Assembly: GCA_964019425.1 (NCBI GenBank)
Contig: OZ025797.1
Location: 558,001-622,000 of the forward strand
DNA: 64,000 bases
From: Flectonema sp. DT1601
Lineage: Eukaryota
Reading direction: 5' to 3'
Position 1 is the first letter of the stretch, and each line of letters opens with the position of its first letter. The notes below the pieces were generated by a model that worked only from the letters and a program-made list of their open reading frames with translations, ran no database searches and had not been told where the DNA came from. Positions 1-63,560 of the stretch are shown here, piece by piece. A program made the position numbers and the translations under genes.

Positions 1-6
1 AATGAT

Positions 7-3000
7 GTGGATAGGTTACTTTTTCAAATTATAATTCTCAAATGTCTGGTTGACAGTAAATCAAAGGCTCACGCTTTCAACATACGCGTTGTTATTGAAG
101 CACAGCGTAGTACGGAACTACTAGATTTATTTAACAAACGAGTTGTTGATCTCGAAACCTGGAATCGTAAAAACGTTATCATCACAACAACGAAGGAGGA
201 CCAGAAAGAGGACCTTATGAAAAGACTTGGTACGATGCCCATGACGCAATGGAGGACACTCTCAGCTTTTTATGATGTCCATAGCGGCGTAGCGGATGAA
301 GATATCATCGAAAAGATTATGAAATCAAACAATACTCAAACCTATCCTTTCTTAAAATTAAAGAATCCAATTATTGATAAATACAGAAACCAGTCTATTC
401 CGATTGGCTATCCATCTTTCATATGGACTCGTGAACTCGCTGATTTAATGGTTCAGTTAGACACTTGGTACACAGCACGGATTCCTATTATATTGGAGGG
501 TGAGACTGGTTGTGGAAAAACCTTCTTAGTAAAGTGTTGGTGTGCTCTTCGTAACTTATCTCTGGAAGTGATTACTATTCATGGTGGATATGATATGTTT
601 CGAATTAAGGAAATGTTGAGGGAGAGAGTTAAGAAGGCACTAAAAATATACCGAAGTACACCATGTCGAAAAAGAACTGTGATATTCCTGGACGAGATGA
701 ACACAACTTCTTCAGTTGATCTTCTGAAAGAAGCAATTTGTGATTTCCGTCTTGATGGTAAGACAATGATAGATTCGCAGAAAGATACTTGCTTGCATCA
801 TGTGACCTTTATTGGTGCGATCAACCCTGATCGTAAACGAACCGAAAAGGAATTAGAGAGATATCGTCATCAGGGATTACAAGTGTTGTCAGGAAATTCA
901 ACAAATCTCGCGGACAAGGTTTATCGAGTTCACAGTTTACCTGAAACACTTAAACAATATTGTATAAAGTTCCCTGACATGGGTGAAGACATTATGGTTC
1001 GGTCTATTGAACACACAATCGAATCGGAGAATATTAAAAATGATTATTTTATTAAATTAATTAAAGCCGCTCACTTTTATATGATATCTGACGACAGCGA
1101 CTATCGTGTTGCGAATATTCGAGACGTGAAGCGAGTCGTATCTGTGTATAAGTTATTCATGGGATTACATAAGTTATGCATGGGATCACTCTGTACTGAG
1201 TTAGAGATGACACCAGATTCAGCGAGTATGGTCGCAATTCATGTTGTTTATGTTTCTAAATTAAATAACAGAAGCGGTCTTTACTCAAAACTCGGAGATA
1301 CTTTTGAGAGTACAGTTCTACAAGTTCAGAATCGTTTCATGGAATTCATTAAACTACCGAAAGGTATAGTTCTGAATGATGCTCTTAGAGATAATGTGTT
1401 TATGATGATTGTTGGAATTACTCTTAAGATTCCAGTCTTTATTATCGGACCTCCTGGTACCAGTAAGTCTTTATCAAAAAGTATTGTCTCTGAGGTGATG
1501 ATTGGGATTGCGAGTCAGAATTCTTTATTTCAAAAATTACCAGAAGCAACGTTAAGAGTTCTACAGTGTTCTCCTCATACGACAGCAAAAGATTTGTCTG
1601 ACCATTTTGATGATTGCTCTCGAAACAAAAACGACGTCGTCGTTCTGGAAGAAGCAGGTCTCGCTGAAATGAGTCCAGAAATGCCTTTGAAACTTCTTCA
1701 TGAGAAGTTTGATGAAAGCGAATGTCCCTGCATCCTGACTTCAAATTGGAATATTGATCCAGCAAAGATGAATCGAGGTCTGTTCTTAACTCGTAGTATG
1801 CCATCAGATGAAGTTTTATTAGAAACTGCGAAGCTATTTGCTGGAAGTAGTCATCAAGTGTTGGAGAAGTTCTTAACTGGTCTTTCAATTGGATTTAAGG
1901 AAGCCGCTGAATTCATGAGAGGAATGAAAGAATTTCCAGAAGGAGCATTCTACGCTTTGAGAGATTTCTACAACTGCGTGAAGATGATTGTTTCACTACC
2001 TGATCCAGTTCCTCATTGTATTCGAACTATTGTCCATAAGAACTTTTCAGGACTTCCTGAAACTCCTCAGTTGGAGGTGGATAAGATATTCGAATCTAAA
2101 ATGGAAATCCCAATCCGGAAATTTAATTTTACTCTTTCTCAAATCGAAATCTCAAATTCGTTTCAAGACATCGACAACGGAAGGTTTCCACTGATTGTGT
2201 CGTCGAATATTTCGTCGACACTTTATTACTTAAAACCTGAACTAGAAATACTGCTTCCCGACGGGTTTGAAGTTGTTTCAGGAAGTGGGTTCTCAAGAGA
2301 TTCAGACCTCGAGTACACAAAGAAGTTGATATCAAGAATCCGTCCAATCTTAAACAGCGGTCGTGGATTGGTTTTATTAAATGCGAACACTTCTTATGAA
2401 AGTCTTTATGATTTATTTAATAAACACTTTACTGAATTCGATGATCAACAGTTTGTAGACATTGGTCTTGGAAGGACTAAAATAAATGTTTCGGTTCATA
2501 AAAACTTTAAACTGGTGTTACTTGTGAATCGCTGGGATGCGTATCATGCTTTTCCACCACCGCTTTTAAACAGATTTCAGAAGCACTGTTTCTTCGTGGC
2601 CGATGATGAAGCAACTGCTCTAAAGAAATGGATCATTAAGGAAGGGAACGTCCGTGGTCAATGTCACGGACTTGGTAAACTTGATGATGAATTAACATGC
2701 ACAGATCCACCAGCTGATGAACAGCTGGCAATGTTACTTTCAGTTTGTGGTTCAGCAGACGAAGCTAAGAAGTCTTTGAAACATTGTTTTGCTGTCCCCT
2801 TAGACGCAAAGCATACCAGTCTGGAAAGCGTTTTAAGTCTTGGGGGACCAATGCATGTGACAGTTGATCAAAGTAAGCATCTCTTTGAAAGTAAAGATAG
2901 CGACATCGTATTGATTGATGTCGGTGCCGTTAAAACAAAAGAAGAACTGATTAATGAATTGTCATCTGTTGCAAGCAGCAATGCAAAATATATAATTATT

Positions 3001-6000
3001 TGTTTGTTTAGTGATTCTTTACATGTCTTCTCAACAGTAGACTTGGCTATCAGAGAGGAACTACCAAAAGAAAAAACAATTCTTGTAACCGACCCTTCTG
3101 TGATAAGATCCTTTGATGGATACTACTCACATCACCATGTCACTACTGCTGTGAAACATGTTTGGAGTGGACTTGATGACCATTTATTTAATATTGATAA
3201 AACGAACCTTTGGAATGCAGTTCTCCACACAATAGAATCTGATGATCTGGTAGTTAATAATATTATTAAATGTAAACCTGAGTGGTGTATTTCATATTGT
3301 GAGAGTCTCTTGTCTGATGGTTGGTTTTCTGAATGTATTCTGTCGGGTACATTAGAGAGTCAAACAATAGATAAAAAAATTATTAATTATCTACAAAATG
3401 AAATGATAAAACATTTAAAGGATCACCTGACTATGGAATTACCAAAAACAAAAAGAACCCTTAAAATGATGCCTGAATTTCTAAGATTTCCCTGGCTCAA
3501 TGAGGGAACTATCGACTTGCTTGTCCAGGAGGCGGATATTGATGTCGAAAACTTCTTTCCTTTCGCTGACGGGTTGGCTGTTGCCATAAGCAAGCTTATC
3601 CCAAATCCGGGCAGTAAACCTTTTGCATCGTTGTCGGGAATTACTAAGACACTAATGGGAGATTATTGTATGAAGTCCGATATGGCTAAACGTTATTTCG
3701 AAACTCGTCATAGCGCCACTGCGGATGAAATCGACAGGCTCAGCAAATGCTATGAGGATGGAAACCCTGCCACGCAACTAATTGCCGGTCACATAATATC
3801 GGAGACTAGGCCTCCAGGTGTTGTTGTAGATCATTATCCTAAAGAGGTAACTCCTGAATCACTTTGGAATGTATTTGTACTGGATGAGGAACATCAGTTA
3901 AATGACGTCCATAAACTAAACGAAACAGAGTCAGAATCAGTGCCACACGGGGAGTCAGATTCGGAAATAGGACGTTCCGAACTGTTAACACAACAAAAGG
4001 AAATCGATCCGAATGAAGTACTGCAAGACATTCGAGAAAGTTTTGTTACGGTTGGGGAAAACGCTGAGAACATGAAACAAATGCTGCACAGAAGTATCGA
4101 GTTGATAGCCACAGATGCAGTAGCTTCAAGATTTCATTTTGTTTTTGAGTTGCTGCAAAACTTCGATGATGCCAAGTACTCGTCTAAGGTGATTCCAACT
4201 GTGATGGTCGTCACAAACAGAACAGAATATTCGGAATTTGCTGTTTTCGGATCGAATGAAATCGGGTTTACGAAAACTGATGTTCGATCCATCTGTAATG
4301 TGGGTTTAAGCACCAAAAAGGGACGAGAAGGATTCATCGGTGAAAAAGGGATTGGGTTCAAGTCAGTTTTTGCAGCAACGAATAATGCATCTATTTCTAG
4401 TAATGGGTACAATTTTAAGTTTGAAAAGGACAAGTCTGATTTGGGAATGATTTATCCTCTTAGTTGCGATACTAAAGAAATTGATTTCCTATCAGACTTA
4501 CGCGAAACAAATGAAATACAAACCTGTATTGTGTTGAAGGGTTCTGTGCCGGTAGATGCGATCAACAAAATAGACGAGAGGTCTTTATTGTTTTTCAGGA
4601 AAATTAAAAAGATCAATATCGACTCAACTACCTGGCATCGCATAGAAGAAGAAGACAATGAAATAGTTCTTCGTAATGAAGTGACAAAGGATAACAAACG
4701 TTTTCATATTATCCACAATGTGATCAACGATGTTGAAGTGACTATCGCATTTCCGTATTCACCATCGGTAGCGATATCGTATCCAGTTTTTAGTTACCTT
4801 CCGATAAGGAAAGCTGGTTTTAATTTTATTCTGAATGCCGATTTCAAATTAACCTTAAATCGTTGTGATATTCACAACGATTACGAAAGTAATAAAAGAA
4901 TCAAAGATGTTTTCACTACAACATTTGAACAACTTCTGGTTGACGACAATTCAAATTTTCCAGCAGTTGCGTATCTGCCAGTAGATGCAATAGATGATGA
5001 CTTCTTTGGGGATTCAGTTAAGGAATTGTTACAAAAAGTTTCGACAATGAAATGTATAAAAACAACTGACGGAGAGATGTCTATTCCGAGTAAAGTTGTT
5101 ATCATTCAAACAGATGATAGCTCTTGTTTGGATTGGATTAAAAAGTTTAAAGGTACAGATCAGGTTTGTTTTGCTCATCCAGACATCGCAAGACGATTAT
5201 CAGATTCAATCATCAGAACTTTAAATATTAAAAGATGGTCGTTAGAGCAACTATTGGATCTCATCTCATCTAATTCTCATCGGTATTGTAATGAGGATTC
5301 TGATTTCTTCATTGAAATGATAAAAGTAATGTTTAATAGTAATAAAATAAGAGGTCAATCAATTACTCTTTATAAACTGTGGCCTCGTGAAGGAGATTCT
5401 TCAAAACTATACACATCCACACTTTTGAGTATTTCAGACCTCCGAAGAGATGTTTTTGACAAACTCACCGACGAGTTGAAAGAGTTTCTGACTCGAGAAA
5501 TAGGTCTCACAAACATCTCGGGCCAGTTGCTTACTCCGCAGGGATTGATTGATACGGCAGCTTCTCGTGATCCGAGTGAGTCATTGGCGTTTTACATCTC
5601 ATGTGTTGAAAAGAATTATGACGAAAATACTTTGAAACAAATTAGAAAAAAGGTTCAGCTAAAAAGTGCTAAAGAGGAATACGAAAGTGCAAACTCTCTC
5701 TTTGAAAGTAAATTCAAAAATATTTTAAATAACTCGTCAGTAGTTTGGGATGGTTACAATCATTCAGAGCAACGATACTTTGAAGATCTCGGTGTTGCTT
5801 CCTCTTTGAGAATATCACCAATGGGATATCTCTCTGAAAGTATCTTGCAAGGTGGAAATATTATCGAATTTTTGAAATACGTAAATTCGAATTTTTCAGA
5901 ATTTAAATACGATTTTCACGCAAATTGGTGGACAGTCCTACCCGACACGATCCAAAATACAAAAATTGAAACAAACTTGGGATCATATTCTCTCAGAGAT

Positions 6001-7269
6001 GTGTATTTTATCAAAGGACTCAGCGGGTCTAACCGTATTTCTGATACGATAAATTCGCATTTTCCTATCGCTGAAGTCGATATTATTGGTTGTGAAATTT
6101 TAGCAGAACAACTCAACGTAAAGATTATTGACATTGACAATTTGGATATCGGCGATGGTAAGGGTGATTTATTTTCGTTAATAACTCAAAATCCAAGACT
6201 ACAGGAGTTAAGTGGTATTCATGTTCCTCTTGTTGGAGGAGGTACGGCCGCACCTGATAAAGAGTTGTTGATTTGCGATATAGAAGACGCGGATCCTGCT
6301 GACATTCTTGAGAATTTTAATATCCAAGTTGCGGATGTCTCACCTGATGTGATATCAACTTTATTAAAACGTCCTAAATGTAAACGTTTATCGAGTAAGA
6401 CAAAAATAAAAACAAAACCATGTCAACCTCACTACAGCTCACCACTGCGAGCGGCAGCTCTCCTAACTCGTTGCTCTGAAAGGTGCGATGGAGAATTTGT
6501 ATTTATTGGAAAAGCGTCTGGTTACATTGTCCCTCCTGGATGTGGAAAGCTGAAAATTGGGTTCCATTGCGAACCGACGACTTCTTTTCCAGGAAAACTG
6601 ACTGAGTATAGTAAAATATATTTCTTTAATAAACTGATGGAGTATGCTCTTCCTTACACAGTTGCTGGGGAGGAGGACGGTGATGACGCGCACAAGTTCA
6701 TGGCATATCGTAAATCAGACAAACTATTGTTTGTCGGTGAAGGCAACTATTCCTTCTCGAATTCAGTAAAAGAAAATCTGAAGAGCGACAACGTAGCTGC
6801 GTGTGATATTCGGTCCAACGGAAGAAACGGAACTTACGGTGACGCTACTGACAGCAAGATCTACCGAGGCGGTTATTATGATTTCATTATATTCAACTTC
6901 TTGCACACATTCGGAAGTCAAACAGGTTCAGCTGATGTTATGAATTTGTCGATAGAATCAAATCGGGAATTAATAAATGGATTCTTCAGGGCTGTTCCTA
7001 AAACGAACTTCACAAAGATCCACGTGACTTTGAAAACAACTTTCCCATATTCTCATTGGGATTTAATTGATATTGCTAAACGTTGTGGTTGGGAGTGTGT
7101 CAGATCATTTCCATTTCCTGAATCATTCTATCGCGATATTGGATATCGTCACACAACTACTAATCCCAAATTGAGAATTTCTGGTGGTGTCAGCTTAAAG
7201 GGCGCTCTGACGTTTGAATTTGTAGCCATTCTTGGGAGTGATTCTGCGAGTGTTGTGAGGAATCATTAA
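7..7269 (+). CDS. Giant RNF213/mysterin-like multi-AAA+ protein fused to a sacsin/NO VEIN-like GHKL ATPase and a C-terminal BMT5/DUF2431-like methyltransferase domain; probably 5'-truncated by the window edge
   Basis: Walker A GETGCGKT with Walker B IFLDEMNT; second AAA GPPGTSKSLS and SNWNIDPAKMNR, plus FPPPLLNRFQKH (RNF213-like). HFVFELLQNFDDA and GEKGIGFKSVF are sacsin/Nov GHKL motifs. LLFVGEGNYSFS, DFIIFNF.H and VTLKTTFPYSHW are DUF2431-like. 2420 aa open frame with no introns. Confidence 0.8.
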   Translation: MDRLLFQIIILKCLVDSKSKAHAFNIRVVIEAQRSTELLDLFNKRVVDLETWNRKNVIITTTKEDQKEDLMKRLGTMPMTQWRTLSAFYDVHSGVADEDIIEKIMKSNNTQTYPFLKLKNPIIDKYRNQSIPIGYPSFIWTRELADLMVQLDTWYTARIPIILEGETGCGKTFLVKCWCALRNLSLEVITIHGGYDMFRIKEMLRERVKKALKIYRSTPCRKRTVIFLDEMNTTSSVDLLKEAICDFRLDGKTMIDSQKDTCLHHVTFIGAINPDRKRTEKELERYRHQGLQVLSGNSTNLADKVYRVHSLPETLKQYCIKFPDMGEDIMVRSIEHTIESENIKNDYFIKLIKAAHFYMISDDSDYRVANIRDVKRVVSVYKLFMGLHKLCMGSLCTELEMTPDSASMVAIHVVYVSKLNNRSGLYSKLGDTFESTVLQVQNRFMEFIKLPKGIVLNDALRDNVFMMIVGITLKIPVFIIGPPGTSKSLSKSIVSEVMIGIASQNSLFQKLPEATLRVLQCSPHTTAKDLSDHFDDCSRNKNDVVVLEEAGLAEMSPEMPLKLLHEKFDESECPCILTSNWNIDPAKMNRGLFLTRSMPSDEVLLETAKLFAGSSHQVLEKFLTGLSIGFKEAAEFMRGMKEFPEGAFYALRDFYNCVKMIVSLPDPVPHCIRTIVHKNFSGLPETPQLEVDKIFESKMEIPIRKFNFTLSQIEISNSFQDIDNGRFPLIVSSNISSTLYYLKPELEILLPDGFEVVSGSGFSRDSDLEYTKKLISRIRPILNSGRGLVLLNANTSYESLYDLFNKHFTEFDDQQFVDIGLGRTKINVSVHKNFKLVLLVNRWDAYHAFPPPLLNRFQKHCFFVADDEATALKKWIIKEGNVRGQCHGLGKLDDELTCTDPPADEQLAMLLSVCGSADEAKKSLKHCFAVPLDAKHTSLESVLSLGGPMHVTVDQSKHLFESKDSDIVLIDVGAVKTKEELINELSSVASSNAKYIIICLFSDSLHVFSTVDLAIREELPKEKTILVTDPSVIRSFDGYYSHHHVTTAVKHVWSGLDDHLFNIDKTNLWNAVLHTIESDDLVVNNIIKCKPEWCISYCESLLSDGWFSECILSGTLESQTIDKKIINYLQNEMIKHLKDHLTMELPKTKRTLKMMPEFLRFPWLNEGTIDLLVQEADIDVENFFPFADGLAVAISKLIPNPGSKPFASLSGITKTLMGDYCMKSDMAKRYFETRHSATADEIDRLSKCYEDGNPATQLIAGHIISETRPPGVVVDHYPKEVTPESLWNVFVLDEEHQLNDVHKLNETESESVPHGESDSEIGRSELLTQQKEIDPNEVLQDIRESFVTVGENAENMKQMLHRSIELIATDAVASRFHFVFELLQNFDDAKYSSKVIPTVMVVTNRTEYSEFAVFGSNEIGFTKTDVRSICNVGLSTKKGREGFIGEKGIGFKSVFAATNNASISSNGYNFKFEKDKSDLGMIYPLSCDTKEIDFLSDLRETNEIQTCIVLKGSVPVDAINKIDERSLLFFRKIKKINIDSTTWHRIEEEDNEIVLRNEVTKDNKRFHIIHNVINDVEVTIAFPYSPSVAISYPVFSYLPIRKAGFNFILNADFKLTLNRCDIHNDYESNKRIKDVFTTTFEQLLVDDNSNFPAVAYLPVDAIDDDFFGDSVKELLQKVSTMKCIKTTDGEMSIPSKVVIIQTDDSSCLDWIKKFKGTDQVCFAHPDIARRLSDSIIRTLNIKRWSLEQLLDLISSNSHRYCNEDSDFFIEMIKVMFNSNKIRGQSITLYKLWPREGDSSKLYTSTLLSISDLRRDVFDKLTDELKEFLTREIGLTNISGQLLTPQGLIDTAASRDPSESLAFYISCVEKNYDENTLKQIRKKVQLKSAKEEYESANSLFESKFKNILNNSSVVWDGYNHSEQRYFEDLGVASSLRISPMGYLSESILQGGNIIEFLKYVNSNFSEFKYDFHANWWTVLPDTIQNTKIETNLGSYSLRDVYFIKGLSGSNRISDTINSHFPIAEVDIIGCEILAEQLNVKIIDIDNLDIGDGKGDLFSLITQNPRLQELSGIHVPLVGGGTAAPDKELLICDIEDADPADILENFNIQVADVSPDVISTLLKRPKCKRLSSKTKIKTKPCQPHYSSPLRAAALLTRCSERCDGEFVFIGKASGYIVPPGCGKLKIGFHCEPTTSFPGKLTEYSKIYFFNKLMEYALPYTVAGEEDGDDAHKFMAYRKSDKLLFVGEGNYSFSNSVKENLKSDNVAACDIRSNGRNGTYGDATDSKIYRGGYYDFIIFNFLHTFGSQTGSADVMNLSIESNRELINGFFRAVPKTNFTKIHVTLKTTFPYSHWDLIDIAKRCGWECVRSFPFPESFYRDIGYRHTTTNPKLRISGGVSLKGALTFEFVAILGSDSASVVRNH

Positions 7270-7928: not shown

Positions 7929-8291
7929 TTTTTTTTATAAACATTATAACAAAGTAACTACATCCTAGTCTTGCTAACTAAGATGCTTCAGTCACAACAG
8001 ATGATTGACTTACTTCTACACCATAACTGATGATGAGAGAATAGAGGTAAGAGGTATATGGATTACTCTCGAAACCTAATAGTTACTTTAAAAGGCTAAG
8101 TTAAGCATCACACCTAGTCACTGTATCTCAGAACTAATGTTAAATTATCGTTATGTTTTTTATGATACAAAACATTTGTATTTTACGTACAAAATCAAAC
8201 AGTTAACCCCCCTTTTTTTTTTTATAAACATTATAACAAAGTAACTACATCCTAGTCTTGCAAACTAAGATGCTTCAGTCACAACAGATGG
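7929..8291. repeat. Two near-identical ~72 bp direct repeats (~7929-8003 and ~8217-8291)
   Basis: ttttataaacattataacaaagtaactacatcctagtcttgc(t/a)aactaagatgcttcagtcacaacagatg occurs twice. Confidence 0.85.
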
Positions 8292-9667: not shown

Positions 9668-10772
9668 ATGGAAAATTGTGATAAGATTGAAGTAATTGGC
9701 AAATCAATCGAGAATCTAGATGACACCCATGACACAATCGAGCTAAAGAAACTGAAAAAACAAAATCTGACACCTGAAGAAACCCTTGCTGATCAGAAGT
9801 ATGCTAAGCTAACAACAGAACTAGAGAGACTGCAGGCAGAAGCGAAAGACTACAGGGATATATTGAAGAAGCCTACTGAGGTATACCTTTTACTTTTTGT
9901 TTGTAACGCATTTCGGGGTAAACCTGTCTGATCGGGTCCGACCTTTTTTTGTATTGGTCACCGACAGCCCTTCAGCGGACGGCCCTTAGATTATTTTGTT
10001 CTCTTACATGTAGATTTGCCTTTAAAACATATCGGATTCTACCAAGTCGTCGACAAAGCAACCGAAAAACCTTAATCCTAAAAAGAATTACCGATGATAT
10101 CTCAATTCTCTCAGACCCAATCCCCTTACCTTAACTTCGTGAACTAAGGGGTGTATGCCCATCAACTTAACACAGGCTTCGGATGACACCTCGCAAGTAC
10201 TCCAGAAGATCCTGCGCAGTCAGGAGATCTTGCAACGAGGTCAGGACGTCCTGCAACTTGACGTCAGTGAGCTGCGAAAAGAAACAGAGGAACACCGGAG
10301 TAGGGAACTTGATGCCTGTTTTGAGTCGACACATTCCGATTCATTGTCGCACAGACGTGAAAAGCCAATTGTCAAGGATTACATTGCTGAAGATTTATTT
10401 TGCATGGCTTGCGGTTCACATAAAGAAGTGTCAATTGTACACATTTTGAAGACCAAGAAGGATTGTGCACGTAATAATGTCAAGTGGGCAGAGCAAGATG
10501 ACATTAGCAACTTTTTGACGCTTTGTGGGACAAAAGGAAAAGAAGATACATGTCATGACTTATTTGATAAGTTTAAACTGGGATTTTGTTACCATGAAGT
10601 TGAATGTAACTGGAAAATAATGTCCCAGAATAGACTCAACGGAAGTCCTGCTGATCTTCGCAGTAACCCACACCGTGCTATACTTCATACACACTTGAAA
10701 GAGTCGATCAGTGCGATTGCATACTTCAACACGGACCATAAGAAGAGATCAACAGTGCAGGCAGGGCAATGA
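9668..10772 (+). CDS. Spliced coiled-coil plus HNH (treble-clef) endonuclease-like protein, Crinkler-effector-like; exons ~9668-9880 and 10176-10772
   Basis: CxxC..H..NFLTLC...CHDLFD pattern (CMACG, IVHI, NFLTLCG, TCHDLFDKF) resembles the HNH_2 family. GT at 9881 and CAG at 10173-10175 join the two ORFs in phase 0. Confidence 0.55.
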
Positions 10773-11192
10773 AGCTTTTGGTTGAAGAACAAAAGAGGAA
10801 GACAAAGGGAGCCACTAGAAGGGCAGGTGAAATCTGGGAGACCAACCACCTTAACCACTGATGGGGAAGCGGGTGCTCGATTTAATTGAGAATATCCGTG
10901 CCCATGGTGGCTCTGTGTTTGCTTCTCTTCTCTGGTTTCAAGCACAGGTGATACGCCGGAACGCATGCCCTACAAGCAACATGGACCTACAAGTTCCTGG
11001 AACAGTGGAACCACTGTGAAAGTAGCGCCCGAAGCAGAACTCCTATCAGCTGGGCAATAGCCAGGAGTTGGGATCACCTGGCCTCGCAGTATATCCGCAA
11101 ATATGACTGAGTAATTAGCCTTCCTATACTGTATGCACCTGGGAAAGAGAAGTATACTTAATTGAATGAACATGCAGTTAACAAGTCTGAGA

Positions 11193-12053
11193 TCACAAAG
11201 AAGAATCTACACTGTGGTGCAGATTACTTCTGCGTAGGGGTTGTACCGGGCTGTTTCGATTCGACGGGACACCGGCACCACCACCACCACGCGAGTTAAA
11301 GAACGACCCCAACGCTTGTTCAACCTTCGCTCTCGTTCCGTGTGAGACTTCCTCTCGAGAAGGAATGTCTGCTGGGTTTAGCTTCGTGCTTACCCAGGCA
11401 AGGGAGTAGGAACATTTCAAAACTAAAAGGCATTCAATCGCAGTTATCAAACACCTGTTGAGACTGTGTGAGCGAACACACATCTTCTTCCTAAAAGCAC
11501 CACAAACTGTAGTGTTGTCAACCCAGATGGAAAGGTGGTCGGCCTTTGCAATTCCTTTGAGTGTCTGTCCAAGAGCGTCCGCTTCAAGGATATTTATATG
11601 TCGGTCTTCACCAGCAGGCCATGCCGCACCAAGAATTTCCAGCTCACCTGTTTTCCAAACGATGACACCTCCCCATCCCTGCAATGAGGCATCTACAAAC
11701 ACTTCGGCAGTCCTCCCCTCTTTCTGCTCAGGCATAATTATTCTCTCCTTCTGCACAGCACCGATCCACATTTCTAATTCCCTCCTTACTGAACGGGGCA
11801 ATTTTAGTACCTGCTGTACTTGTAGGGTCCCCTTGTTCAAGTAATTTGTGACCCTCGGGACCTCTCGTGGGCTCGGAAGCCTTCTGTGTCAGGCCGCATG
11901 TCGTGTCTACAATGAAGTGTCAACTTGGAACTGTTACGAACAAGAGGAATCCAACTGGTTAATTAAACCACAGCATGTCGCTTCATCACAGCGGTGGCGA
12001 GTGGCATGTGACTTCTGCCCAGTGCCCTGAATGCCAACGCTGAGAGATCAGGT

Positions 12054-12088
<35 letters not shown>

Positions 12089-22037: not shown

Positions 22038-22116
22038 GGCTATATAGCTCAATTGATAGAACGCCGGTCTGCAAGAATGGCGGTCGAGGGTTCAAAACCC
22101 GCTGACGGTGGTTTTT
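22038..22116 (+). promoter_or_regulatory. Degenerate tRNA-like sequence (A box, B box, T5 terminator), divergent from the LINE 5' end
   Basis: TAGCTCAATTGATAGAAC D-arm, ccggt-CTGCAAG-aatgg anticodon-like arm, GGTTCAAAACC T-loop, then TTTTT. The acceptor stem does not pair. Confidence 0.5.
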
Positions 22117-22140
22117 GTTTGGTGCTCAGTTTCGGTGGCA

Positions 22141-58433: not shown

Positions 58434-61400
58434 GGGGGGTAACTTGATACTAATATTAAATGGAAAGCAACTTGAAACTGGCAAAAACGAGAATAGGGTT
58501 CGGCCAAACCTGGTTGCAATATAAGAAATCAACAGTTGGTATCGATAGAAAATCCCATATGTGCTGTCGAATATGGGGATTCGGGGGCCACGTACTACAG
58601 GTTGAGCACCCCATGCCCTGTAGCCCGTTACAGCTTAAAATAGTATTCCTTCACACTTCAAAGGTAAATAAATATTAAAGGAAAATTAAAAAAAGAAAAC
58701 TATTTTTGCAAAAATAATAAAAGAAATAAAGAATAAAAATAAAATATAAATTATTTCTGGTTCGTAGCACACTACCAGTGGAGCACATCTCGCAATACTT
58801 TGCTGCGAGTGATAATTAACTACGTTCGCTTTGCTCTCGAAAGACTGTACAATGAGTTTGGTGTGATCTTAAGCCTCGTAAATTAAATTGTCTTCCGGCC
58901 TGAGATTCCGTGGCACCACACGCAGTACAGATGAATAATCCCAAACAACTCAAACAAACATCATAATCACAGTCTTTTTGTCTACATTGGAATGCAAGAT
59001 TATAAGTGGTTTGTGGCATGTTGCGATCACAGATATTACAGTACATATTACTACTTACCTTCGCAAATTTCAGGTTGTGTCTTGCTGGACATAAGTGGAG
59101 CTCTTCTTTAAAGATTAGAATGTCTGAATCTTCTAATAAATTAATAAGTACATCCACAACTAGCTCTTCATCAATCGTATTAGAACTTGAGGAAGTAGTT
59201 GAGGAAGATGAATCGGAAGAGGTCACAGATACGGTTTCTGAGGTTAAATCTGAGCAACTTGACATTGTTGTGGCTGCTTTCATTTTGATCTCATCGAAGT
59301 ACCAGTAATGCAACAGTTCGTAAACATCATAATTAACGTTGTCGAAGGTTAAAAGGTTCATAGTGGCACCCGCTTTCGATAGAAGAGTATCAGCGTCGAC
59401 AAAATTAGGACACATTTTCGCTAATTCAGGTACTATTAAATTCATGAAAGCCTCATAATTCCATTGCGACATAGTAAATATGGTGCATTGTTTTCCGTGA
59501 CTTCTCGGTAAAATTGGCATATAGTGCTCAGAAGTAGTATGGTACGCCATTACACCGATCGTACCCCAAAAATATGTATCTTGTGTACTGGCTGGGGAAA
59601 TCCATCGTAAACTTTTTTCCTGCACGCTATTAATAGTGATTAGTATTAAAGAACAACCCATTTCATCTAAGAAAGCTTGAATATACACATGATCTGTATA
59701 TGTATTACTGTCAAGTACATCTTCTGTGAATTTTTCATAATCTGTGTCTACAAAACTTTGGTATTGCGCCTTCTTTAAAGTCAGTCTACGATGTATAACT
59801 CTACGTACCCATTCAGCGTTTATGACTCCATTTTGACAAATTATTAGTGCCATAGATTCAAAGAAACAATTACCTGCTGTGTTTACCGAGGGTATTGTTA
59901 AGTCCCAGTCCATAGTTTCTAGTAGAGTTTTCATATCCCGAAACGTAAAATAAGAAACCAACTCGTCCAAATGTCCCAGATTCACCTTGGCATCCGAATT
60001 GGTAGGGGATGACAATTTTTGAACTAGGACAGCTGTTCTGTCGGTTTCAATTTCATCTTTTTCGATGGGCGGGTACGTTATATAGTTTCTTTCACCAGTC
60101 GGGTAGTAATAATCTTTCTTCAAGCCTTCAAGGATCCGGTAGAAAAGATTGATGCATCTTTTATTGACAAAAGGATATTCTTCATAGAATTCGTCACAAA
60201 ATTCCTTGTAGCCGGTTGATATGTGATGCTTTTTAAATTTTCTAGTAATCATCCGATAAATTATCCATTCAAACTCTATTAGTAGGTCAGAGAGGTTGTT
60301 ACAAATCATGCTGGCTCTATACATCGCTCCTTTAACTATACCTTTGGGTATGGAATCAGGCATCGTGGAGTCTGCATGCACGTACTGTAAAGGTTTGAAG
60401 TTCCACTCTTTCCGATGAACGGAGAGACGAATAAATTTCTTTTTCACTTTCACTTCTTCCCTTGCAATGTCTTCCTCGACCCGTATCCGTGCACCAAGAA
60501 ACACCACATCATTACTATCTAGGGAGGTATCTTTGTAGTCCATGCCGTACATCTTTTGCGGCGGTGGTTTTGTCCCCCAGCATAAAAAATCATCAATATA
60601 TCTTACTGTTAAAGTATGTGACTTCGCAATTTCCAGAGTTGACTGTTCTATAAATTTCTTCTCAACTGCATAACAATACAAGTTAGCTAGAAGCGGGGAG
60701 GCATTACCACCCATGGGTATCCCTTTCGTTTGACGGTAGCATTGATGACTACCAATCGGTTGGATTAAAGAATAGTCGATACACATGTCAATTAGTTTAC
60801 CAATCATTTCGGAAGTGTATTCCTTTGTGTTTGCATCAACTCCGTCTGTGAAAAAGAAAGTCTTGGACTTTCCACGTGCTCTGCTATTTCGTGCAATATG
60901 TTTCTTACCGGAAAATCTAAAAGCTTCATCTACTGCTTCTTTGCAATTTCGTTTAAGTACCTTATGCTTCAGGTTGCTGTACATGGTGGTGAAGTCATAA
61001 GTTTTGGGTTCAGCGTATTTTAAAAATTCAGGGTAGTTGGATTTAATCCGTTGTATTACCTCATCTACTGAGTCAACAATAAAATATTTTCTAACACCAG
61101 TCTTTACATATTCCATATGGTCCTTTGATTTTAGTGTGAGCAGTATTAACTTAATAATTCCAGTAAGTTCTTGTTGAGCGTGTGTCATTACATTGGATCG
61201 AAAAACTCTCTCTCTTGTATTGGTCACCTTCTTTGATTCGTCAGTCTCTTTGTCAGGTTCATTCGTTTCCTCAATCAAAGTTTCACAGTTGACAGAAGTA
61301 CCTGCAATCCATCTAAGGCGGATGTCTGGGATCTTATGCAGTTTAAAAATCCCATATAAGTACGGCACTGCGCCAGTGATTTTTGGAAATTTGAGTTCCT

Positions 61401-63560
61401 TATTTGTTTTCATTAACCCGTCTGTTAATACATTTTCTACTTGTTCGTAACTTTCCATTTCATTTTTCAATAGCTCACAATAATAAGCTTTGCACATTAC
61501 TGCGCAATCATGTCTTGCTTTATCCACTGGGAGGAATAGGACATGTTTTTTTAGGTCCTTTAATTCTCTCATACACTTTGCTAAAGTTGCATCGTTGGGT
61601 AAGGGTTTTAATTGTATTTGTGAAGTGAATTCTTCCTTCAGCCATCTATTTAAGACTTCGGCGTTTGCTTCTCTGTCGCTTTTAGTTGTCCCAATCATGA
61701 ATCTCGTTACTTTTTCGGTAAATCTATCAGCTGCTTCATGAAGTTCTTGTGTCATCTCATGTTGTGAACAGTGAATACGGTAAAGCATTCCTAACTTTAG
61801 TACCTCTTTTAGTTGATCACTACATTTCAAAGAAGAACAATGTCCTGCAACATGTTTGGTATTACAATTATCTTCTTTGTATTGATAACAAGGACATTGT
61901 TTATCATTTAGTGGAGGTGACTTTTCTAACTCAATCGTATTTGTGTTAAATATTTTCGATCCTAAAGTTCTGCTGAGTCCATAGGATGTTTTGGTAGGTA
62001 AACCAGAGGGTAGTAACTTCTTATACTTTTCTTTTATGAATACTGCATTAAAGTCCATTTTCTTCACACAAGGGTGCAGCATCTTCAGACAAAACCAGTG
62101 GCAATCAACCACACGATTCTTTTTTCTTTCTCTTTTAATTTTAAGAGCCTCGTTGAGTGCTACAATGATTGCTTGCATTTTATTATTTTCTTTCACTTCG
62201 TGACTTGCAAATCTTCGGATCCAGTGAAACATTCGTGAAATTCTTGTGAAAGACCAGTCTTTAATAACTTCAACATTAAGTGCTTCAAGATTGCATAAAT
62301 GCTGTAGTTGTTTCCTTAAGCCATAGAATAGGCGAAACTTTGGGTTCGGTCCGACATCAGTGATGATCACTCGACCATTATTTATTTTCGTCCAATTTGA
62401 AGGGGGTTCGTTAGTATTCTTTTTCCGTCTTCTTCTTTTTATCTTTTCCGTCGGGACTTTCGTTCGTGTGGATGCTTTTTTGTTATTTTGTACTTTCTTC
62501 TTTCCCAGTATATTATAATGCGGTTTGAAATGACTGATCCAAAACCTCTCGGCTGGGTCAGCCATATTACGGAATAGGAAACTGTTGTTTTTCAGGAAGT
62601 CGGGTTCATTAATTACTTCCAGTGTCACTGGGAATAATGGATATTTTCTCTTACGTATGAATTTGTATAATGGTTGAGTACATTTCCCCTGTACTGAGCG
62701 ATTGCTCCAGTGTTGTTTTTCTCGATCTCTCGCAGTTTTATAAGTTTGACCAACATAACGGATATGTCCTCTCTCACACAATAAACCATAAATTACACCT
62801 TTACAATCTTGAGGCTGTGCTTCAAAAGAGAGTCCACGTTGTTGGCGTGCTGTCCTTAACTTCTTTGAATAGTTCTGTTCAAACTTTCGTCTTGCTTCTT
62901 TTAATGAAACTTCGTACTGATCATCTCTACGTTGGTTCTTTTCTAAGATCTTCCGGTCTTTAAATGCAACAGTGTGAACAGAACTTTCATCTTTGGCTCT
63001 GCGAACTACTGATTTGGCAATTCCAAACGGTATATGGTCAAGAGCTAAAGATAATTGGGATTTGGGAGGTGAAGTATTTTGGGATAAATTATAATTTTGC
63101 ATGAGTGTTATTAATAAAGGTAACTGTTAACTCTAAAATAGTTAACTATTTTTTTGGGAAGCTTGACCCTAAAACTGCTTTTTTAAGAAAATAAAAATAG
63201 TAAAAATTAAATAAAAATAATGAAAAGAGATTAAAGCTTTCTCAAGAAGGCTAAGGAAATGAAAGGGAAAAAGGTTGTCAGGGGATTATTGAAAGCAGGG
63301 GATGAAGGTCGGGTCAGGGCTACTTCCCAGCCACAAAACCTTCATCCTAAAACCCCTGCAGCACTTGATGACTGCTCCTCATCTAATATGGGATCTAACC
63401 TACTAGTCCGCAGACGACTACCCTACTGACGGTGTTCCTATTAGTCAGTCAATAGTGTCCATCTACGACAGCGGGTCATCAAATACACAAGATAATAGAA
63501 AGAGAAAGAAAAGAGAGAATTGACTAACCCTGTACTGAACAACCATCTCAGAACGGAAGA
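58434..63560 (-). mobile_element. Penelope-like retroelement with N-terminal endonuclease (Naiad/Chlamys-type domain order); boundaries inferred
   Basis: Single intact ORF with GIY-YIG before RT. Ends inferred from motifs shared with the 499-bp repeat and from a G-run at 58425-58439. Confidence 0.8.
58816..63102 (-). CDS. PLE polyprotein: GIY-YIG endonuclease, reverse transcriptase, OTU-like cysteine protease and zinc fingers
   Basis: GVIYG..RYVGQT...R.KQH...AERFWI..YN (GIY-YIG); PVDKA, YDFTTMYS, QTKGIPMGGNASPLLANLY, RYIDD and VFLG (PLE RT); AGNCFFESMA...VRR...HYMPI (OTU-like); Cys clusters at the C-terminus. Confidence 0.88.
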   Translation of the reverse strand: MQNYNLSQNTSPPKSQLSLALDHIPFGIAKSVVRRAKDESSVHTVAFKDRKILEKNQRRDDQYEVSLKEARRKFEQNYSKKLRTARQQRGLSFEAQPQDCKGVIYGLLCERGHIRYVGQTYKTARDREKQHWSNRSVQGKCTQPLYKFIRKRKYPLFPVTLEVINEPDFLKNNSFLFRNMADPAERFWISHFKPHYNILGKKKVQNNKKASTRTKVPTEKIKRRRRKKNTNEPPSNWTKINNGRVIITDVGPNPKFRLFYGLRKQLQHLCNLEALNVEVIKDWSFTRISRMFHWIRRFASHEVKENNKMQAIIVALNEALKIKRERKKNRVVDCHWFCLKMLHPCVKKMDFNAVFIKEKYKKLLPSGLPTKTSYGLSRTLGSKIFNTNTIELEKSPPLNDKQCPCYQYKEDNCNTKHVAGHCSSLKCSDQLKEVLKLGMLYRIHCSQHEMTQELHEAADRFTEKVTRFMIGTTKSDREANAEVLNRWLKEEFTSQIQLKPLPNDATLAKCMRELKDLKKHVLFLPVDKARHDCAVMCKAYYCELLKNEMESYEQVENVLTDGLMKTNKELKFPKITGAVPYLYGIFKLHKIPDIRLRWIAGTSVNCETLIEETNEPDKETDESKKVTNTRERVFRSNVMTHAQQELTGIIKLILLTLKSKDHMEYVKTGVRKYFIVDSVDEVIQRIKSNYPEFLKYAEPKTYDFTTMYSNLKHKVLKRNCKEAVDEAFRFSGKKHIARNSRARGKSKTFFFTDGVDANTKEYTSEMIGKLIDMCIDYSLIQPIGSHQCYRQTKGIPMGGNASPLLANLYCYAVEKKFIEQSTLEIAKSHTLTVRYIDDFLCWGTKPPPQKMYGMDYKDTSLDSNDVVFLGARIRVEEDIAREEVKVKKKFIRLSVHRKEWNFKPLQYVHADSTMPDSIPKGIVKGAMYRASMICNNLSDLLIEFEWIIYRMITRKFKKHHISTGYKEFCDEFYEEYPFVNKRCINLFYRILEGLKKDYYYPTGERNYITYPPIEKDEIETDRTAVLVQKLSSPTNSDAKVNLGHLDELVSYFTFRDMKTLLETMDWDLTIPSVNTAGNCFFESMALIICQNGVINAEWVRRVIHRRLTLKKAQYQSFVDTDYEKFTEDVLDSNTYTDHVYIQAFLDEMGCSLILITINSVQEKSLRWISPASTQDTYFWGTIGVMAYHTTSEHYMPILPRSHGKQCTIFTMSQWNYEAFMNLIVPELAKMCPNFVDADTLLSKAGATMNLLTFDNVNYDVYELLHYWYFDEIKMKAATTMSSCSDLTSETVSVTSSDSSSSTTSSSSNTIDEELVVDVLINLLEDSDILIFKEELHLCPARHNLKFAKVSSNMYCNICDRNMPQTTYNLAFQCRQKDCDYDVCLSCLGLFICTACGATESQAGRQFNLRGLRSHQTHCTVFREQSERS

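Follow-up and report, generated by a model that had tools for sequence, protein, structure and literature searches.

A conserved protist protein that joins an RNF213-type AAA motor and a Tiamat-like GHKL ATPase to a predicted BMT5-like methyltransferase domain

Background

RNF213 (mysterin) forms a coat on bacteria and on parasite vacuoles, a process that is cooperative and depends on ATP (PMC11549300). Mutations of the Walker A and Walker B motifs in its AAA3 and AAA4 modules affect the protein, and it is ATP binding at these modules that switches on its output (PMC12075652). A second immune scaffold is that of the anti-phage protein Tiamat (TmtA), which needs its catalytic glutamate, is predicted to form a dimeric clamp and shows frequent swaps of its nuclease, a domain predicted to double as a C-terminal dimerisation domain (bioRxiv 10.64898/2026.09.30.754977). 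For the eukaryotic Tiamat homologues NO VEIN and sacsin the accessible text of that preprint gives roles outside defence, and an antiviral role of eukaryotic homologues is posed there as an open question (bioRxiv 10.64898/2026.09.30.754977). The third protein of relevance here, yeast Bmt5, is a nucleolar enzyme that acts on 25S rRNA, where it makes N3-methyluridine (m3U2634), a modification that blocks Watson-Crick pairing (PMC3950682). As the loss of Bmt5 is without effect on the growth of yeast (PMC3950682), m3U on rRNA is not known as a toxic modification.

The gene described here lies at the beginning of a 64,000-nucleotide stretch of Flectonema sp. DT1601 DNA (contig OZ025797.1, positions 558,001 to 622,000), which is referred to as the window and to which all nucleotide positions below apply. 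Its product almost certainly combines an RNF213-type AAA motor, a Tiamat-like GHKL ATPase and a BMT5-like domain in one protein, a conserved and apparently undescribed combination of two immune scaffolds that terminates in a new kind of domain. The initial annotation of this DNA had allowed for the architecture being widely annotated already; no description of it was found in the literature, nor was the fusion of these three parts, in a search that covered subscription journals thinly. The main text of the Tiamat preprint (bioRxiv 10.64898/2026.09.30.754977) contains no mention of RNF213, BMT5, dynein, Diplonem or Cymbomonas, and a term search of the accessible text of PMC8195603 and PMC7159879 returned no mention of RNF213.

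The gene and its genomic setting

The gene occupies positions 1-7269 of the plus strand as a single intronless frame of 2422 codons that is open at its 5' end and closed by a stop codon at 7267-7269; the chance of 2422 codons without a stop at this composition is about 1e-77. The frame is identical to the last 2422 residues of the ENA protein P0002 (3611 aa), and thus represents residues 1190-3611 of that protein. The initial annotation was right in seeing one intronless frame of 7.2 kb, although the gene start that it placed at base 7 is merely an in-frame GTG: base 7 is not the true start, since P0002 continues for 1189 residues upstream of the window frame. These residues supply the N-terminal sequence that the annotation had proposed to retrieve.

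Codon composition is even along the gene, with a GC3 of 0.31-0.38 across its domains vs 0.31-0.39 in six neighbouring housekeeping-type frames. The transposon-rich setting suggested at the outset is borne out by mobile elements at 10-22 kb, after the frame, and the opposite orientation of the housekeeping cluster by the long housekeeping-type frames that follow on the minus strand. The mobile-element block extends over 10143-22125 (no single strand assigned), between the gene and the minus-strand gene cluster, and comprises an HNH-like frame, a broken RT/RNase H element and an APE-RT-RNase H LINE. The LINE, with its APE, RT and RNase H domains and a 678-aa frame upstream, is found at 16175-22125 (minus strand). 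A eukaryotic LSU rRNA fragment of about 300 nt (Rfam RF02543, 228-236 bits) at 11839-12160 (plus strand) lies inside the broken RT/RNase H element, which is on the minus strand, with the RT piece of the element (12120-13028) on one side and the RNase H-like piece (11193-11888) on the other. Downstream of the gene there is also a 75-nt direct repeat, its copies (7929-8003 and 8216-8290) being 99% identical and 287 nt apart, and at 58816-63126 (minus strand) the window holds a frame of 1436 aa that has an RT and, at its N-terminus, a weak match to GIY-YIG.

An RNF213-type motor without an E3 module

The window opens in the end of an AAA1/AAA2-like region (1-453, plus strand), recognised with a profile of P0002 residues 1000-1325 that matches 79 of 124 RNF213-like proteins and 0 of 124 when these are reversed; the AAA2 Walker A motif, GDAGCGKT at P0002 residue 1138, falls just upstream of the window. 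There follows an RNF213-type AAA3-AAA6 core at 454-2631 (plus strand, residues 152-877), which phmmer matches to RNF213 structures at E 4e-93, in good agreement with the RNF213-type AAA modules first noted at about 470-2600. A profile of this core matches RNF213 at E 6e-150 vs 5e-18 for midasin. By alignment, AAA3 (499-702, plus strand) has intact Walker A (GETGCGKT, 499-522) and Walker B (IFLDEMN, 682-702) motifs, and AAA4 (1447-1662, plus strand) has GPPGTSKS (1447-1470) and VVLEEAGL (1639-1662) in these positions. The Walker A lysine and Walker B glutamate of both modules align with the residues that RNF213 needs, the catalytic glutamate of AAA4 being kept within an EE, found in five of five aligned family rows, where RNF213 reads DE. 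The AAA4 region (1309-2133) is a mosaic with respect to the related ENA protein P0003, with 97% identity; 5 of 115 otherwise free columns differ there vs 24-51% in most other regions, a pattern that suggests gene conversion or recombination between copies.

The likeness of P0002 to RNF213 spans from about residue 1000 to the end of AAA6. Beyond AAA6, profiles of the next two regions matched 0 of 124 RNF213-like proteins, and positions 2632-4020 (plus strand) hold a post-AAA region and linker that is conserved within the family. No RING or RZ finger (PF20173) was detected in P0002-P0005, P0123, P0182 or P0330, in scans in which P0007 and others were RZ-positive, and P0002 has no CxxC motif. Replacement of the E3 module of animal RNF213, as had been proposed initially, is thus upheld by the lack of any RING/RZ match or E3-module likeness after AAA6. 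At the other end of the protein, a profile of the first 1000 residues of P0002, the portion that would include the RNF213 stalk and CBM20, matched 0 of 124 RNF213-like proteins. A model of the Cymbomonas N-terminus built from a four-row alignment has a six-strand beta domain of low confidence (pLDDT 52) and no Foldseek match at E<=0.001; CBM20 rows came in only at ranks 20 and 50, in the company of many beta-sandwiches. Sequence, profile, PDB, Pfam, Atlas and Foldseek tests gave no usable support for CBM20. An N-terminal CBM20-like sensor is a possible reading, prompted by the impression of a CBM20-like pattern.

A Tiamat-like GHKL module and spacer

Positions 4021-5100 (plus strand) encode a Tiamat/NO VEIN-type GHKL ATPase with its transducer, as judged by Pfam, NCBIfam, PADLOC and alignment. 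Pfam reports SACS at E 3.6e-10 and the NCBIfam model P_loop_sacsin is above its cut-off; the best match of the GHKL part is the PADLOC profile TmtA (Tiamat), at E 7e-55 over residues 1354-1967 (nt 4060-5901) and aligned up to position 708 of 1302. Of the sacsin/NO VEIN-like ATPase that the initial annotation placed at about 4060-4900, the GHKL part therefore stands, but the specific likeness of the C-terminal half to Tiamat had been missed, and it is this likeness that strengthens the idea of a defence function. The motifs are ELLQNFDD (4147-4170), GEKGIGFK (4339-4362) and an arginine (4861-4863), all on the plus strand by alignment; the GHKL glutamate, asparagine, Gly box and this one arginine show no variation across the 33 rows aligned, and from its position the arginine would be the transducer arginine.

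A Tiamat-core-like spacer follows (5101-6690, plus strand), the proximal part of which aligns to Tiamat, the distal part not, with the PADLOC match ending at 5901. A profile of 89 Tiamat bodies is covered over positions 4-616 of 1493 in the window protein and 28-897 in Cymbomonas P0330, and a profile of the spacer matches 13 of the 89 Tiamat bodies, with its proximal part alone, and none reversed. Pfam detects no DUF3684 in the spacer, and Atlas gives weak DUF3684/DUF8348 leads. J and HEPN domains are likewise without a Pfam match, and there is one SACS stretch vs the three ATPase repeats of sacsin. The NOV_C nuclease (PF13020) is present in none of the family members scanned, the BMT5-like domain being terminal instead. 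The C-termini of 21 scanned GHKL relatives carry NOV_C (15), HET (1) or SACS alone (5), and the NOV_C and HET endings mark the C-terminus as an effector slot. Two further Tiamat-like proteins have internal insertions, a RING finger in P0305 and a PAZ domain in P0221.

A BMT5-like tail

At 6691-7227 (plus strand) Pfam, a structural model and a fold search all point to a BMT5-like class I SAM-dependent methyltransferase fold. The Pfam match to BMT5-like (PF10354) has an E value of 4.5e-17 and 63 bits vs a gathering cut-off of 24.7; with motif I at nt 6736, it bears out the DUF2431-like SAM-binding domain, another name for the same family, that had been placed at about 6720-7230. The model is a Rossmann fold (pLDDT 78) whose best fold match has a Z of 11.8 and an rmsd of 3.1 with 135 residues aligned, and the top matches are all methyltransferases, among them small-molecule O-methyltransferases and protein and RNA enzymes, which singles out no substrate. 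By alignment the tail carries GEGNYS (motif I, 6736-6753), an aspartate after strand 2 (6805-6807) and NFLH (6895-6906), all on the plus strand, and among the residues it retains are those of motif I, the acidic one that follows strand 2, the asparagine and the DAT-type aspartate. SACS or AAA labels occur in 0 of 53 BMT5-like matches under 2288 aa. The diplonemid Namystynia and Euglena possess other BMT5-like proteins; one protein of Namystynia karyoxenos (P0133, 1014 aa) has a BMT5-like and a second methyltransferase domain.

The substrate of such a tail might be something other than RNA. The presence of small-molecule and protein methyltransferases among the top fold matches, together with the coating of bacterial surfaces and vacuoles by RNF213 (PMC11549300), would suit a role in defence in which a lipid, glycan or protein at an invader's surface is methylated, as a counterpart of the LPS ubiquitylation by RNF213; yet the named sequence relatives of the tail are all Bmt5- or FDXACB1-like and Tiamat acts on nucleic acid (bioRxiv 10.64898/2026.09.30.754977), which makes a non-RNA target distinctly improbable.

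A different concern is raised by the tail in the lineage of the window. The spacing from motif I to the NFP motif is 46-52 residues in this lineage (52 in the window, where it is measured to NFLH) vs 73-91 in 11 other rows measured, reflecting a deletion of about 25 residues between the motifs that is found in four of four rows of the lineage and is in frame in several genes. NFLH for NFPH is a feature of the window alone, a leucine replacing a nearly invariant proline; the Diplonema and Cymbomonas tails are full-length with NFPH. In six post hoc Fisher tests that compared the divergence of tail and GHKL domain, the tail was in excess for P0003/P0004 (34/164 vs 13/328 sites, p 1e-8) and P0002/P0003 (55/164 vs 46/329, p 9e-7), with no excess in the other four pairs, which include the Cymbomonas pair and a deep distance. 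Fast divergence of the tail would be as compatible with relaxed selection as with an arms race, and the deletion and NFLH may represent decay. These are the features to be expected if the protein serves in defence with a tail that is no working RNA methyltransferase, binds SAM or RNA or provides a dimerisation contact, and is perhaps decaying in the lineage of the window; the nuclease of Tiamat, too, is a predicted C-terminal dimerisation domain (bioRxiv 10.64898/2026.09.30.754977). Nevertheless, the SAM motif I, acidic residue, DAT-type aspartate and asparagine are all kept in a fold predicted to be intact, the deletion stays in frame across several genes, and the full-length tails of Diplonema and Cymbomonas keep NFPH, so that a non-working tail appears unlikely.

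Distribution and probable shared origin

AAA, SACS and BMT5-like domains were found together in P0002, P0003 and P0004 (ENA) and in Cymbomonas CYMTET_51899 among the matches listed (120 of 209, 1332-4239 aa), and in one of six proteins of 4240-5000 aa, Diplonema papillatum KAJ9466027.1, which carries the database name 'putative E3 ubiquitin-protein ligase' and has no detectable E3 module. When cluster representatives were searched by HMMER with the last 1082 residues, the best 150 of 4144 matches added CYMTET_37677 (second model P0330) and a solo tail domain of 195 aa (P0190). The fusion architecture is therefore present in at least six genes, the window's included, from ENA, NCBI and EukProt records, and two of these are paralogues in Cymbomonas. 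The closest named relative for every domain is D. papillatum, among the matches listed, which would make a diplonemid the probable host. Paralogues with swapped C-terminal effectors, a search for which had been suggested initially, were not found, the members found all sharing the same effector.

The domain trees were all midpoint-rooted. In the AAA tree (50 rows selected from 131 cores) the five fusion rows form one clade (98/95), the sister of which is a Paulinella protein with an RZ finger, P0007 (100/100). The GHKL tree (42 of 152 rows) likewise has a fusion clade (98/93), with two proteins as its sisters, one of them with a RING finger, and so does the methyltransferase tree (99/95), which comprises 40 rows; of 53, 18 near-duplicate FDXACB1 rows and two badly bounded matches were excluded, and yeast Bmt5 is absent from it. 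The three trees agree on ((window+ENA, Diplonema), Cymbomonas).

It might be argued that a gene adjoined by mobile elements owes its unusual composition to an assembly chimera or to gene calling. The same domain order in five other genes shows that it is no assembly chimera, an eventuality that the initial annotation had considered; with six genes of this order from ENA, NCBI and EukProt, congruent trees and a single frame with even GC3, an artefact is scarcely credible and has in effect been refuted by independent assemblies. Read most simply, the trees would reflect a single event in which a Tiamat-like module took the place of a protist RNF213's E3 module, with later transfer or patchy loss. 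Two more specific proposals on ancestry lost support: a eukaryotic origin of the GHKL module, with a support of 97 in a FastTree analysis of 152 rows, fell to 69/61 in the careful 42-row tree, and a link of the tail to Namystynia P0133, with 85 in a quick tree, was gone in the careful one.

Pattern scans able to detect close relatives of the window protein's C-terminal half found none in viral contigs or prokaryote genomes. Scans with family alignments returned 64 metagenome loci and one locus from a viral collection, and in these, many of which are short or intron-split, tblastn found the GHKL-methyltransferase half in 0 of 65. A contig labelled as a giant-virus MAG (IMG/VR; L065, 876-14159) encodes an RNF213-like protein of 4427 aa that has both the AAA core and an RZ finger; since this protein groups with protist-type proteins, host DNA in the bin is possible. 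In a further locus (L063, 663-19075) an RNF213-like AAA core is split between two long frames that overlap; a vWA domain precedes the AAA part in the first of them. The solo domain P0190, which the methyltransferase tree places as sister to the P0004 tail (100/94), might represent either a gene remnant or an orphaned tail cassette. P0004 itself is without some 370 spacer residues (at P0004 3082-3110), its methyltransferase directly following the proximal core, either through a natural deletion or through an effect of gene calling.

Proposed function

A defence role of the fusion protein is, on balance, probable. The parents RNF213 and Tiamat are both immune proteins in the accessible published accounts, and this counts for defence, as do the gene duplicates (two Cymbomonas paralogues and the solo tail copy). 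The full proposal, cell-autonomous defence in phagotrophic marine flagellates with RNA methylation as its output, is more tentative, and we would assign it a probability of roughly 0.4. On a single occasion, a protist RNF213 that bore an RZ finger would have given up its E3 module and acquired a Tiamat-like one. As in RNF213, the N-terminal region and AAA ring would recruit the protein to an invader or to the compartment that contains it, the AAA motor acting as an ATP-gated sensor and recruitment concentrating the protein. The GHKL domains of neighbouring molecules would then dimerise on ATP and clamp nucleic acid or an RNP, as proposed for Tiamat, and the methyltransferase, in the position of Tiamat's nuclease, would N3-methylate uridine in the clamped RNA. 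As N3-methyluridine blocks base pairing, the RNA of the invader might be disabled or translation stalled.

The same parts could also belong to a housekeeping or exapted factor for RNP remodelling, for instance in pre-60S maturation, in which an AAA motor and rRNA methylation were joined as they occur separately in midasin and Bmt5. Midasin has a related AAA ring, yet the core is much nearer to RNF213 (6e-150 vs 5e-18); Bmt5 is nucleolar and acts on 25S rRNA (PMC3950682), yet Namystynia and Euglena have other BMT5-like proteins. Exaptation has precedents in NO VEIN and sacsin (bioRxiv 10.64898/2026.09.30.754977), and the host-like codon GC and the lack of an effector swap between diplonemids and Cymbomonas are what such a factor would lead one to expect; a fusion known, among the matches listed, from two distant lineages only, with duplicates and a solo tail copy, would be unusual for a core factor. 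We consider this explanation fairly unlikely. At the other extreme, the defence proposal can be enlarged to an immune machine in which an RNF213 motor and a bacterial-type Tiamat clamp wield RNA N3-uridine methylation as a weapon, passed as a unit between green algae and diplonemids and with exchangeable methyltransferase tail cassettes. Exchangeable tails are suggested by P0190, whose sister is the tail of P0004, a tail attached to its chassis across a deletion of 370 residues; the enlarged version as a whole seems rather doubtful.

If the architecture is as described, the motor of RNF213 can be detached as a module and given an output other than ubiquitin; in these free-living flagellates its partner is a homologue of a bacterial anti-phage protein, and the fusion offers a natural experiment on how an AAA ring signals to its output. 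The database label of D. papillatum KAJ9466027.1 as a 'putative E3 ubiquitin-protein ligase' is corrected. Diplonema papillatum is genetically tractable, and the joining of a Tiamat module to an RNF213 motor in this species makes the question of eukaryotic antiviral function testable. Were the reading as an RNA-methylating immune machine true, it would provide both the first case of an RNF213-type motor whose output is not ubiquitin and the first Tiamat scaffold to carry a base-methylating effector.

Comparison with known systems

With RNF213 and its RZ-bearing protist relatives the fusion shares the dynein-like AAA1/2-AAA6 core, the Walker residues of AAA3 and AAA4 and a long N-terminal region; it differs from RNF213 in being without RING, RZ finger or likeness to the E3 module, in the EE instead of DE of AAA4, and in that stalk and CBM20 are undetected. 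Sacsin resembles it in the SACS-type GHKL domain, but the fusion has one ATPase repeat, not three, and no J or HEPN match, and the sacsin repeats in the PDB match weakly (E 0.02-0.8). The yeast Bmt5 and FDXACB1 N-terminal domains (PF10354) share with the tail the Pfam match, motif I and the predicted class I Rossmann fold, whereas the tail is terminal in a giant protein, forms a separate clade and, in the window, has the deletion and NFLH.

Tiamat (TmtA) and NO VEIN are alike to the fusion in the GHKL ATPase with catalytic glutamate and putative transducer arginine, followed by a stretch that aligns with part of the core; compared with strict Tiamat, the core is shorter and the PD-(D/E)xK (NOV_C) nuclease is lacking. 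Neither a methyltransferase effector nor an AAA-ring N-terminus figures among Tiamat types I-XI as given in the accessible text of the preprint (bioRxiv 10.64898/2026.09.30.754977). The fusion fits the effector-swapped 'Tiamat-like' class, judged by domain order and not by the preprint's HMM threshold, since a different domain follows its ATPase and core where the nuclease would be.
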